33,231 bases of DNA from Candidatus Wallbacteria bacterium. Lineage in GTDB: Bacteria > Muiribacteriota > UBA6191 > JACPRK01. The position numbers were made by a program, and so were the translations under genes. Below the pieces are notes generated by a model. That model was not told where the DNA came from. It ran no database searches and saw nothing but the letters and a program-made list of their open reading frames with translations. Below are positions 8,411-11,533 of this stretch, piece after piece. Position 1 is the first letter of the stretch; each line of letters opens with the position of its first letter. The DNA is taken from assembly GCA_016190005.1 (NCBI GenBank), contig JACPRK010000021.1, positions 1 to 33,231 of the forward strand. The letters are read 5' to 3'.

Positions 8411-8469
8411 GGAAATGCGGGGACACACGACCTATTTTTTCAAAATAGGTCGTGTGTCCCCGCATTTCC
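8411..8469. terminator. Perfect 28-bp-stem, 3-nt-loop palindrome (element A copy 1); rho-independent terminator downstream of the MORN-repeat gene.
   Basis: GGAAATGCGGGGACACACGACCTATTTT-ttc-AAAATAGGTCGTGTGTCCCCGCATTTCC. The arms are exact reverse complements and are followed by a T-rich CATTTCCTTCC. It is preceded by the tandem motif AATGCGGGG x2. It lies between the MORN gene stop (8498) and the 795-aa gene start (8279), both on the minus strand. Confidence 0.6.
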
Positions 8470-8497
8470 TTCCTTCCGGCCGGCGGGCGGCCGGGCG

Positions 8498-10066
8498 TCA
8501 GGGCAGGGCGTCGCCGCGCCGGTCCCAACGGTTCCAGGGGGGTAGCTCACGGCCGGCCTCGTACTTGCCCTCGGAGCGCTTCGAGGTTTCGTCGTACCAG
8601 GTCGTCCACGTCCCCTCCTTGCGGCCGGCGACGTAGGTCCCCTCGGTTCGCGCCAGGCCGTCGGCGCCCCAGAAGATCCACTTTCCGTCCCGCTCGCCCC
8701 CCCGATAGCTTCCCTGCGCGGCACGCTTGTGTTGGCCGGCGTCCCAAGCGGCAAGAGGCCCCACAGCGCCGTGCGCTCTTTCGTGATCCTGCTTGTCCTG
8801 GAGGCGGTCCGAGCTGTCCCACACTGTCCAGGGCCCCGTTCGCAAGCCGTTCTCGTAGGCGCCCTCCTCCTTCTTCAGTCCTCCGGCATGCCAGCTGGTC
8901 CAGACACCCTCCTCGTGGCCGTCGCGGAACTCGCCCTCTCGCCTCTTTTGCTGGGGACCGTCTCCCGCGGATTCGTGCCACCAGGTCCAGCGGCCGCTGC
9001 GCTGATCGCCGGTGTAGCTGCCCTCGGATAGCTTCCCACGACCCTTTTCGTGCCACTCCTGCCAGCGTCCATGCCGGTCGCCGTCGCGGTACTCGATCTC
9101 ATAGCGTTTGGTCGAGCCGTCGTACCAGGCCGTCCAGAGTCCGTGGCGCCGGCCCTTCTTGTAACTCCCTTCTTCCTTCAGGAGCGTCGTGCTGAGCCAG
9201 CTTTCGCCCGTTTCGTGGGACCACTCGACCCAGGTGCCGTGGCGGACCCCGCCCTCGTATGCGCCCTCCCAGGCAGGCAACCCGTCAGGTTTCCACGAGC
9301 TCCAATGCCCGTTGCGCTCCCCGGCGGAGTAGAGGCCACGCTCCCGCTTCAAGCCGTTCGGATACCAGCTCGACCAGGTGCCTTCGCGGCGCCCGGCCAG
9401 GTATCGGCCTTCCTCCAGCTTCCGGACGCGCGAATCGCCCCGCAGCAGCCAGGTCGTCCAGGCTCCGTCGAGCTCGCCACCGGAGTACTCGGCCTCCGTG
9501 AGTTGCTGGCGATCCTCCGACCAGGCAAGCCATTTTCCCTGCCTCCGGCCCTCGTGGTACTCACCCCGCTCCGCGATCGCCAGGCCGCAGGAGTCCCAGA
9601 AGATCCAAGGTCCTGTCCTCGAACCCTCCTTCCAGTCGCCTTCGTCGATCGGCTTGCCGCCGGCCCGGTAGGTCTTCCAGGGTCCGTGGCGGCGGCCCGC
9701 GTCGAACGCGCCGATTTCGCGGAGCGAGCCGTCCGGATGCCAGGTGCGCCACGGGCCGTCCCGCAGGCCGGCCTTCCAGTTTCCCTCCTCGAGCAGTCGG
9801 CCCAGCTCGTCTGAGGCTCGCCAGAGTCCCTCCATCTTGCCGGCCTTGTAGGCGCCCTCGCGGGCCTTCGCGCCGCCGGGGTGCCACTCGACGCAGGGGC
9901 CATCGTAGACCGGCTCGCCGTTGAGCGACCGACCGCCCGTGACGGTCCGGCGCACCGTGCCGTCCGGGTACTTGTCGGTGAAGGTCTCGGGCGTCCCCGC
10001 GGGCGCGGTGCCGGCCGAAACGACCCAAGCCAGTAGCAGCAGCCAGGCCGCGAGACGAGGTGTCAT
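8498..10066 (-). CDS. Secreted MORN-repeat (YwqK-family-like) protein with about 20 tandem G-x-W..W..G..EG.Y repeats.
   Basis: The internal ATG at 10066 gives the signal peptide MTPRLAAWLLLLAWVVSAGTAPAG. The rest of the protein is built from repeated units such as EGxYKxGxRxGxWxxWxxxG, the MORN variant common in bacterial YwqK/antitoxin-annotated proteins. 522 aa. Confidence 0.75.
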   Translation of the reverse strand: MTPRLAAWLLLLAWVVSAGTAPAGTPETFTDKYPDGTVRRTVTGGRSLNGEPVYDGPCVEWHPGGAKAREGAYKAGKMEGLWRASDELGRLLEEGNWKAGLRDGPWRTWHPDGSLREIGAFDAGRRHGPWKTYRAGGKPIDEGDWKEGSRTGPWIFWDSCGLAIAERGEYHEGRRQGKWLAWSEDRQQLTEAEYSGGELDGAWTTWLLRGDSRVRKLEEGRYLAGRREGTWSSWYPNGLKRERGLYSAGERNGHWSSWKPDGLPAWEGAYEGGVRHGTWVEWSHETGESWLSTTLLKEEGSYKKGRRHGLWTAWYDGSTKRYEIEYRDGDRHGRWQEWHEKGRGKLSEGSYTGDQRSGRWTWWHESAGDGPQQKRREGEFRDGHEEGVWTSWHAGGLKKEEGAYENGLRTGPWTVWDSSDRLQDKQDHERAHGAVGPLAAWDAGQHKRAAQGSYRGGERDGKWIFWGADGLARTEGTYVAGRKEGTWTTWYDETSKRSEGKYEAGRELPPWNRWDRRGDALP

Positions 10067-10207
10067 GGCACCCCGGGAATTTAAGCACCCGGCGGGGAAT
10101 TGGCAAGCTGCCCGGGCCGCGCGAGTTGCCGTGATGCAGGGCACGCTTTAACTCATGACGCGACGGACCGCTTCTGGACGGGGGAAAGCACGGAAAGGGG
10201 CCCTCTG

Positions 10208-10768
10208 ATGTCGCCACATCGCTTCGCATGGATAGCCCTGCTCGCGCTCTGCTGCACGGCGCAGGCGCAGGCCGGCATCGACGTCGACTGGAGCCGCGCC
10301 ACCCGCAGGTTCACGCCTGCCCAGAAGGCGGCCATCGAGAAGCGTATCGACGAGGCGGCACTCCTGTTCCTGGACGAAAGCTACGCGGACCTGGGCAAGC
10401 TCGACATCCGCGCCCACGCCCGGACGGTGCTGGTGCAGATCCGGGACTTCGGAACCAATCGCGAGCGCGGGCTGCACCTGTCGGGCGCCGTCTTTCTGAA
10501 CCAGGACCGGCTCGACGACCTGGACGCGGCGCGCCTGACGCTGGTGCATGAGCTCAGCCATGTGTACGACTTCCTGGCGCTCTCCGAAATGATGATGGAC
10601 TACCTGCTCTCACCGGAATCCGGCGACGGGCGAGTGGCCGAGAAGCGCCTCGACGAGCCGATGCGCGCAATGGGGCGGATCAAGGACGCAGCCGAGAAGA
10701 GGGCTCACGAACGGATGACCCGTTATGCCCACGACCAGGGACTGAAGGTCCCCGAGGTTCACGAATGA
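10208..10768 (+). CDS. Small secreted protein with HExxH motif (HELSHVYDF); putative minimal zinc metallopeptidase-like protein, paralogue 1.
   Basis: The internal ATG at 10208 gives the signal peptide MSPHRFAWIALLALCCTAQAQA. The single HExxH is followed by an acidic/aromatic block (YDF). 186 aa. Its stop overlaps the start of paralogue 2 (ATGA at 10765-10768). Confidence 0.6.
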   Translation: MSPHRFAWIALLALCCTAQAQAGIDVDWSRATRRFTPAQKAAIEKRIDEAALLFLDESYADLGKLDIRAHARTVLVQIRDFGTNRERGLHLSGAVFLNQDRLDDLDAARLTLVHELSHVYDFLALSEMMMDYLLSPESGDGRVAEKRLDEPMRAMGRIKDAAEKRAHERMTRYAHDQGLKVPEVHE

Positions 10769-11466
10769 GATTCGCCGCGTGCACGATGCTGGTGGCCATG
10801 GCCCTCCCCTGGAGCGCCGCGGAAGCCGAGGTTGCCGTCCTCTACTGGGCAGGCACCAAGGTGTCCGCGCACACGCGCGACCAGGTCGGGCTGATGGTGA
10901 AAGACGTCGCCGAGCAGTACTCGACCAAGAACGAGAACACCGAGCTCGGCCCGATCGATCTCCTGCACGGCGCGCCCTCGGTGAAGATCCACATCTGGCG
11001 CGAGGAGCCGGACACCCCGATCTACTACTTCTTCGGGGAGATCTTCTGCCACGTCAGCCTGCTGAAGAACATGCAGGACTTCCGGCAGAAGCTGATGCAC
11101 GAGTTCAGCCACCTGTACGACTACACGCTGGTCGAGCAGCTGCGCGAGATCCGGCGCAAGACCGATCCGATCACCGATCTGAAAGTGCGCAAGCGCCGCA
11201 TGAAGGACCCGCTGACCGAGATCGTCCACGACAACGACGCCAACGAGGCGCGCGCCCGTCGCCGCGAGCACCGCTACATGGCAGGTCCCGGCCAGGTCCC
11301 GCCCATCCCCTGCCCTGCCCACGCCACGCCCAACGACTGCGTCAAGAGCTTCGACTTCCACAAGGACTCGCAGCTCCCCGCCGAACGCATGATCCCCTCC
11401 GGCCTGCTCGACGCCTGCACGAAGTACGGCGCCGCCATCGTCGGCCACTCGGCCTCGCGCCGCTAG
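10765..11466 (+). CDS. Small secreted HExxH protein (HEFSHLYDY), paralogue 2 of the preceding gene.
   Basis: Signal peptide MRFAACTMLVAMALPWSAAEA. Shares the core ...LMHEFSHLYDYTLVEQL vs ...LVHELSHVYDFLALSEM with the upstream gene. 233 aa. Followed immediately by palindrome element A copy 2. Confidence 0.6.
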   Translation: MRFAACTMLVAMALPWSAAEAEVAVLYWAGTKVSAHTRDQVGLMVKDVAEQYSTKNENTELGPIDLLHGAPSVKIHIWREEPDTPIYYFFGEIFCHVSLLKNMQDFRQKLMHEFSHLYDYTLVEQLREIRRKTDPITDLKVRKRRMKDPLTEIVHDNDANEARARRREHRYMAGPGQVPPIPCPAHATPNDCVKSFDFHKDSQLPAERMIPSGLLDACTKYGAAIVGHSASRR

Positions 11467-11480
11467 TCGAAGGGGAAAAG

Positions 11481-11533
11481 AAACCGGGGACACACGACCT
11501 ATTTTAAAAAAATAGGTCGTGTGTCCCCGGTTT
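11481..11533. terminator. Perfect 25-bp-stem, 3-nt-loop palindrome (element A copy 2); bidirectional rho-independent terminator between the convergent HExxH and MVP genes.
   Basis: AAACCGGGGACACACGACCTATTTT-aaa-AAAATAGGTCGTGTGTCCCCGGTTT is flanked by an A-run on one side and TTTTTTT on the other, giving U-tracts on both strands. It shares the 20-bp core GGGGACACACGACCTATTTT with the copy at 8411-8469. Confidence 0.7.

Follow-up and report, generated by a model that had tools for sequence, protein, structure and literature searches.

Two long palindromes in a 33,231-nucleotide (nt) stretch of a Candidatus Wallbacteria bacterium (contig JACPRK010000021.1, assembly GCA_016190005.1; the whole stretch is called the window) are very probably, judged from sequence, non-autonomous dimers of the terminal inverted repeats (TIRs) of a Y1/HUH transposase. 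The enzyme resembles the REP-associated tyrosine transposases (RAYTs; REP, repetitive extragenic palindrome) and is of the TIRYT type (TnpA-Y1 subclass 2.1, Bertels Group 1). The palindromes belong to a family that is physically linked to a transposase gene in a sister genome, carries the motif GGGGWSAS in its arms, and lacks target-site duplications. The apparent oddity of the locus is thereby removed, as the palindromes are members of a genome-wide family and not a locus-specific device. The TIRYT/TIRtron kind of repeat family, which counts as selfish or domesticated DNA, is already known; what is newly added is this family in a lineage labelled Wallbacteria.

A dispersed palindrome family linked to a Y1 transposase gene

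An earlier note on this DNA had described two perfect palindromes with 3-nt loops, and sequence inspection and repeat finding confirmed both, with the arms, loops, and positions given there (Table 1). The arms of copy 1 are 28 nt long and 100% complementary (GGAAATGCGGGGACACACGACCTATTTT; loop TTC), while copy 2 has perfect arms of 25 nt (11481-11533; loop AAA), which the repeat finder extends to 32 nt (94%). The 20-bp core that the copies were said to share also held: the window contains the 20-mer GGGGACACACGACCTATTTT at four places, one per arm in both copies, compared with 0.00 occurrences expected from 100 shuffles. Likewise, the flanks of the core (AAATGC in copy 1 and AAACCGG in copy 2) are self-complementary within each copy, as described. 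RNA folding of either strand of both copies yielded −54 to −58 kcal/mol, with z scores of about −10. A repeat search of the 33-kb window revealed no further long, tight palindromes of this kind. A fuzzy search allowing up to 6 errors over 274 kb (the window plus loci of metagenome-assembled genomes [MAGs]) detected no diverged copies or single arms beyond the known homogeneous ones.

To count the core beyond the window, as the earlier note had proposed, the 18-mer GGACACACGACCTATTTT was searched by exact match in 185,579 species genomes (one genome per species). Matches were found in 44 stretches of 8 kb, 30 of which, on 26 contigs, belonged to a single MAG, JACQZN01, which is labelled Candidatus Wallbacteria (68% GC). 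This sister MAG contains at least 36 further full palindromes at unlinked loci, and the presence of the core at these loci rules out local duplication as its sole origin. The window aligned with two JACQZN01 loci, L024 and L038, at 93.9 to 98.2% identity, and these loci contain the orthologues of copy 1 and copy 2, respectively. A third locus, L005, is an unlinked paralogue of copy 1 with the same flank variant. No match to the element was found in the plasmid, phage, and viral contig collections searched. Rfam returned no matches in the window at gathering thresholds, and its sub-threshold hits were only generic hairpin matches to microRNA precursors.

Two of the JACQZN01 palindromes flank a 228-amino-acid (aa) open reading frame (ORF) at locus L032; locus L130 represents the same transposase locus. 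The encoded protein matched Pfam Y1_Tnp (E = 1.4e-18; 67.6 bits, cut-off 23), and its best NCBIfam model was REP_Tyr_transpos (59.5 bits), with the IS200 model scoring 34 bits. It aligned to ISDra2 TnpA over the HUH and Tyr motifs, and the motifs NHVH (NHVHLV), WQ (LWQGRY), and YVERNP (RYVERNP) could be read from the sequence. The gene context is ordinary chromosomal, with a cytochrome bc-type operon on one side and a nitrate-reductase cluster on the other. Given about 36 copies in at least 2.6 Mb, we estimate the chance of palindromes flanking one 0.7-kb gene on both sides at approximately 1e-5. [quoted passage not shown] The transposase ORF runs into the right palindrome, its TAA stop codon lying within a loop of 2 nt instead of 3 nt.

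The arm signature extends to homologues of the L032 protein. More than 3,400 matches at E ≤ 1e-10 show this protein family to be very large. No close orthologue was found in metagenomes, where the best match was 57% identical. Five relatives (55 to 58% identity) are each flanked by inverted arms starting with GGGGACA or GGGACAC, with the right arm in each case reaching into, or directly adjoining, the 3' end of the gene. The arm at one homologue locus, L048 (GGGACACACGACTCGTTTTC), shares 12 consecutive bases with the window arm (GGGACACACGAC...). A set of 82 homologue loci was assembled from 80 metagenome loci, minus a few with too little flanking sequence, plus L032 and the five relatives. 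Flanking inverted repeats of at least 12 nt were present at 69 of the 82 loci, and the right arm was often located within a few nt of the gene end. The strict form of GGGGWSAS (GGGG[AT][CG]A[CG]) was found in 38 of these 69 repeats and a relaxed form in 55, with the remainder mostly near variants; the majority started with GGGGACAC or a near variant of it. Tight head-to-head dimers with short loops were also detected near some homologues (L082, L110, and L123).

Previous research has described RAYT-like genes with long TIRs sharing GGGGWSAS, named TIRYTs/TIRtrons, whose TIR families are moderately abundant and in many cases present as dimers or clusters (Di Nocera et al. 2013, PMC3733652). Most TIRYTs fall into TnpA-Y1 subclass 2.1, which corresponds to Bertels Group 1 (Quentin et al. 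2018, PMC6006769; Group 1 RAYTs, PMC5581495). Members of this subclass have a median length of 238 aa, the motifs NHVH (HuH), W[EQ], and Y..(L)NP, and the same flanking consensus, GGGGWSAS (PMC6006769). The system described here resembles them in its RAYT-like gene of the Y1/HUH type (about 230 aa; motifs NHVH, WQ, and Y..NP), in the placement of this gene between inverted repeats of which the right one overlaps its 3' end, in the GGGGWSAS motif (GGGGACAC here), and in a moderate number of dispersed repeats occurring as dimers and clusters. As the L032 protein and the arms match each of these descriptors of TIRYTs and subclass 2.1, the window palindromes can be assigned, with good though incomplete confidence, to the terminal-repeat dimers of this type. 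In contrast to the published TIRYTs, nearly all copies here are perfect head-to-head dimers with a 3-nt spacer, forming hairpins of 57 to 59 nt; whole dimers rather than single TIRs flank the transposase gene; and the host belongs to an uncultured lineage that bears the label Candidatus Wallbacteria.

Similarities to the REPIN-RAYT system of Pseudomonas and Enterobacteria (Bertels & Rainey 2011, PMC3116915; REPINs are built from two inverted REP units) include two inverted units forming one long hairpin, tens of extragenic copies, correlated changes in the arms, a preference for sites after genes, and a repeat-flanked RAYT-family gene, one of which was found here among the fetched loci. However, the hairpin foot carries no GT[AG]G tag, the spacer is 3 nt, and the enzyme belongs to subclass 2.1 instead of 2.2 and 2.5. 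No canonical REP tag (GTAG, GTGG, CTAC, or CCAC) occurs anywhere in the 59-nt element, the foot of which reads GAAAACCGGGG. A single 27-nt arm has no internal self-complementarity and only the dimer folds; the doublet architecture of a REPIN is thus present, while the individual unit does not fold as a REP does. By analogy, the palindromes would be functional counterparts of REPINs that lie outside the canonical GTAG-REP families (subclasses 2.2, 2.4, and 2.5). With the IS200/IS605 elements (e.g., ISDra2, PDB 2XM3), the system shares the catalytic fold and motifs, a presumed single-stranded-hairpin chemistry, and the lack of target-site duplications. In contrast, the ends of IS200/IS605 elements are short, imperfect, and non-identical hairpins inside a multi-copy insertion sequence, whereas here one copy of the transposase gene was found against a far larger number of repeats.

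Several observations weigh against an assignment to TIRYT terminal-repeat dimers. Both copies occupy the same sites in the two genomes compared, and no movement was observed. The NCBIfam RAYT score of 59.5 bits is below the curated cut-off of 80. No transposase gene was detected by tblastn in the 33-kb window, and the evidence for the cognate enzyme comes from the sister MAG only; among the window and the fetched loci together, tblastn found no transposase other than L032. The near-invariance of the core is partly due to ascertainment, as the scan could pick up only palindromes with an exact match to the 18-mer in one arm. Furthermore, the TIRYT/TnpA-Y1 literature compared contains no biochemistry for TIRYT enzymes.

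Under the TIRYT assignment, each palindrome would consist of two TIRs placed head to head across the 3-nt spacer, i.e., a transposase-less, REPIN-like form of a TIRtron. By analogy with IS200/IS605 TnpA and Escherichia coli TnpA-REP, the Y1 enzyme may bind the single-stranded hairpin, cut it, and re-join it elsewhere. Copies would then persist at harmless sites, mainly a few bases past stop codons, and where such a 25- to 28-bp hairpin is transcribed together with its A/U tracts, it could serve as a transcript 3'-end structure. Subclass 2.1 has been reported to be largely free of REP-like families in general, to lack canonical GT[AG]G REPs (Quentin et al. 2018, PMC6006769), and to be more prone to horizontal transfer. 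A broader and tentative proposal, which we consider rather unlikely in its entirety, is that this subclass nevertheless sustains a REPIN-like population of near-perfect 57- to 59-nt hairpins in an uncultured candidate-phylum lineage, that the transposase/TIR pair moved between phyla (Fimbriimonadaceae, Armatimonadota), and that the hairpins were then partly co-opted as bidirectional terminators. Overall, JACQZN01 provides a clean, well-populated TIRYT-type repeat family outside the usual Proteobacteria, and its transposase gene flanked by complete dimers would be useful for testing whether subclass 2.1 Y1 enzymes mobilise flanking repeats.

Table 1. Positions of the palindromes, related repeats, and genes discussed in the text
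Feature	Sequence	Position	Strand	Remark
Copy 1	Window	8411-8469	.	Probable head-to-head dimer of transposase terminal repeat; "ATGC" flank sub-family
Copy 2	Window	11474-11540	.	Probable head-to-head dimer of same terminal repeat as copy 1
Outer-module tandem duplication AAATGCGGGG	Window	8403-8412 + 8413-8422	+	Window sequence, alignment with sister MAG
Orthologue of copy 1	JACQZN01 L024	5314-5370
Right-side mirror duplicate at copy 1	JACQZN01 L024	5363-5380
Orthologue of copy 2	JACQZN01 L038	3409-3465
Y1 transposase gene	JACQZN01 L032	807-1493
Palindromes flanking transposase gene	JACQZN01 L032	683-725; 1470-1511
Y1 transposase gene, same locus	JACQZN01 L130	6001-6687
Core sites	CAYONP01 L015	6740-6875; 7124-7258
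Core site	CAYONP01 L044	7344-7482
Core site	CAYONP01 L013	4615-4795
Core site	CAYONP01 L035	3818-3958
Lone arm match	L029	141-175
ORF next to copy 1	Window	5892-8279	-
MORN-repeat gene	Window	8498-10144	-
First HExxH gene	Window	10100-10768	+
Second HExxH gene	Window	10765-11466	+
MVP-like gene	Window	11545-14127	-
Tim44-like domain gene	Window	22787-24475	+
Unrelated inverted repeat	Window	33132-33215

Variation and arm symmetry within the family

The family consensus, derived from at least 36 JACQZN01 palindromes, is GGAAAACCGGGGACACACGACCTATTTT-NNN-AAAATAGGTCGTGTGTCCCCGGTTTTCC. The consensus of a single TIR is GAAAACCGGGGACACACGACCTATTTT, with the arm core starting at GGGGACAC and the boundary at the hairpin foot reading GAAAACCGG/GGGACAC. 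Arm length ranges from 26 to 39 nt across the family. Positions 9 to 26 of the 27-nt arm are nearly invariant, and the second arm, which is free of the ascertainment bias, is also essentially perfect. Variation is mainly confined to the loop, the A/T run, and the CCGG-proximal bases. The loop was TTC/GAA in 21 and AAA/TTT in 12 of 38 copies.

The earlier note had taken the self-complementary flanks as compensatory changes that imply selection on the hairpin itself. Symmetric variants are indeed common (20 symmetric versus 16 asymmetric variant cells across the family), and some process clearly maintains the symmetry of the arms. However, the AAATGC flank of copy 1 was found on both arms of the unlinked L005, which makes it a sub-family variant that was inherited rather than a compensatory change with its origin at this locus. 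Hairpin-templated correction is a known property of DNA quasi-palindromes. The symmetry could thus result either from selection for a hairpin required by the transposase or from templated correction without selection.

The outer modules are less stable than the core. Tandem duplicates of the AAAACCGG type were present on one or both sides of about 10 of 38 copies. In the window, copy 1 has the second unit of the AAATGCGGGG duplication as the outer part of its left arm. A right-side mirror duplicate at copy 1 is present in the sister MAG and absent from the window, corresponding to an indel of 8 to 9 nt. The window and the sister MAG are 98% identical in the DNA around copy 2 but differ at this copy in the loop, a single flank base, and the A/T runs. 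As the differences between the genomes at both copies are peripheral, the periphery evolves faster than the core. Slippage and transposase action are both candidates for the fast change of the outer module; a transposase cut inside this module would also account for its tandem duplicates.

Target-site duplications were searched for at the borders of 38 copies; a 2-nt direct repeat was found at one copy, compared with about three expected by chance, and none was longer. Such a lack is expected of HUH/Y1 chemistry and speaks against DDE-type MITEs.

Genomic placement and alternative explanations

The gene context of 37 copies was classified with an ORF call based on GC content at third codon positions. 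Twenty copies were located between tandem, 11 between convergent, and 6 between divergent genes, with a stop codon typically 4 to 42 nt away; at least one adjacent gene end was present for 31 of the 37. The family is tolerated mainly just past genes, as REPs are. Within the window, the stop codon of the MORN-repeat gene is followed after 28 nt by copy 1, which itself is located about 130 nt upstream of the ORF next to it (Table 1). Copy 2 is placed between the convergent second HExxH gene and MVP-like gene, 7 to 14 nt past the stop codon of the former and 4 to 11 nt past that of the latter, with an A-tract before it and a T-tract after it.

A structured terminator had been the preferred reading of the earlier note, which placed both copies where terminators are expected. 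This may hold in part for copy 2. A terminator consensus scan scored it as terminator-like on both strands, and a role as a bidirectional intrinsic terminator between the convergent genes is plausible given the A-tract, the GC-rich base of the stem, and the T-tract found on either strand; on these sequence features, we put the chance of this at even or slightly below. The case for copy 1 appears weaker, as it scored on the plus strand only, whereas the adjacent gene ends on the minus strand, where a good U-tract is lacking. Termination would thus be a secondary effect of the palindromes at best. In annotation, the hairpins can be used as marks of likely transcript ends, and they coincide with assembly trouble spots, as the sister MAG breaks within the same 3-kb segment.

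A stronger form of this explanation would make the palindromes primarily intrinsic (Rho-independent) terminators that evolved in the host, with their similarity due to constraint and not to mobility. Both window copies are indeed 4 to 28 nt past stop codons, the hairpins are very stable, and the prevalence of adjacent gene ends across the family and the tracts of copy 2 point in the same direction. Nevertheless, we regard a primary terminator identity as improbable. Constraint on termination leaves unexplained why the 40-nt core is identical at 36 or more unlinked loci. Two copies flank the Y1 transposase gene, and the same arm signature is found at homologous genes elsewhere. Furthermore, bona fide divergent sites were confirmed with Pfam at L003 (between an M1 peptidase gene and an RF-1-domain gene) and L034 (between a HEAT-repeat gene and MlaE); termination therefore cannot be the defining role of the family. 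The orientation of the loop relative to the upstream gene was also unbiased (GAA, 7 copies; TTC, 6 copies; own tally), and copy 1 lacks an adequate U-tract on the transcribed strand. Other repeat-borne terminators, such as paired uptake sequences and REPs/bacterial interspersed mosaic elements, are likewise dispersed inverted pairs 3' of genes that may form transcript-end hairpins. However, an uptake signal would require a far higher density than the one observed here (approximately one copy per 70 kb or less), and the idea of a DNA uptake sequence was ruled out on this ground.

The two copies had also been said to bracket a 3-kb segment, and this arrangement, together with the resemblance of each palindrome to two TIRs, would suit DDE-type MITEs, or a composite transposon or cassette that contains the MORN/HExxH genes and has the two copies as its ends. 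However, close pairs are common in the family. Several JACQZN01 loci contain two or three copies within 0.5 to 3.5 kb, and 13 of 36 MAG copies (about one-third) have a neighbour within approximately 3.5 kb, compared with about 3 expected from the density on hit-bearing contigs (own calculation). The enclosed segment does not differ from its surroundings in GC content or composition, and the sister MAG has it too, together with both copies. The bracket thus reflects the usual clustering of the family, with no sign that the segment is a unit or that its bracketing has a meaning. As target-site duplications are lacking, the arms flank a Y1 gene with no DDE transposase associated, and the plasmid, phage, and viral contig collections searched contained no copy, a MITE or composite-transposon origin is very improbable.

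Equally little speaks for the palindromes being operators for a palindrome-binding regulator of the neighbouring pseudopilin and MVP genes, which the earlier note had considered as a means of co-regulating these two operons. A perfect dyad with a conserved 20-bp half-site formally fits binding by a dimeric protein; yet copies adjoin unrelated genes (cytochromes, nitrate reductase, M1 peptidase, MlaE, and diguanylate-cyclase-like and hemerythrin genes), mostly just past their stop codons, half-sites of 26 to 28 nt separated by 3 nt are far longer than those of known operators, and the link to the transposase explains the palindromes sufficiently.

Surrounding genes and occurrences in other lineages

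The genes that the earlier note had placed between the two copies, a MORN-repeat gene and two HExxH paralogues, were confirmed. The MORN-repeat gene encodes a signal peptide and MORN_2 repeats (Pfam). The two adjacent HExxH genes encode small proteins with likely signal peptides, each containing an HExxH motif; the proteins are distant paralogues (26% identity, E = 3e-7) and matched no Pfam family. Within the MORN-repeat gene, two JACQZN01 contigs (the ends of L024 and L038) break off with an overlap of about 400 nt, corresponding to window positions 9233-9632. This suggests that the assembly break is due to the internal MORN repeats and not to the palindromes.

The gene adjoining copy 2 on its other side encodes a bacterial protein of 860 aa that is homologous to the eukaryotic major vault protein (MVP), with a match to MVP_shoulder (E = 4.5e-26) and weaker matches to Vault repeats. 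The remainder of the window is ordinary chromosome, with genes for isocitrate lyase, pseudopilins, glucose-6-phosphate dehydrogenase (G6PD), glutamine synthetase, an amino-acid permease, and similar functions. One further gene encodes a 562-aa protein with a Tim44-like domain (E = 1.2e-26). The window G6PD was at most 58% identical to any other protein in a set of 5.8 billion proteins, the best named matches being from Polyangiaceae, Myxococcota, and Zixibacteria. As this protein is without close relatives, the lineage, for which the label Candidatus Wallbacteria is taken as given, is poorly sampled. An unrelated inverted repeat with 25-nt arms (92% complementary, 34 nt apart) is located at the extreme end of the contig.

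Outside JACQZN01, a lone, near-perfect 27-nt arm match (GAAAAACGGGGACACACGACCTATTTT) was found at L029 in apparently coding DNA of 44% GC from a MAG labelled Chitinophagaceae, with no partner arm and no Y1 gene nearby; it may be a chance match or a relic. The same 20-nt arm core also occurs, in other arrangements, in a MAG labelled Fimbriimonadaceae (CAYONP01, 68 to 73% GC). There, it forms the TIRs of MITE-like elements of about 127 nt with a common GC-rich interior, as well as tandem arrays of single arms. The occurrence of the core in this MAG is consistent both with horizontal spread of the transposase/TIR pair and with mis-binning.

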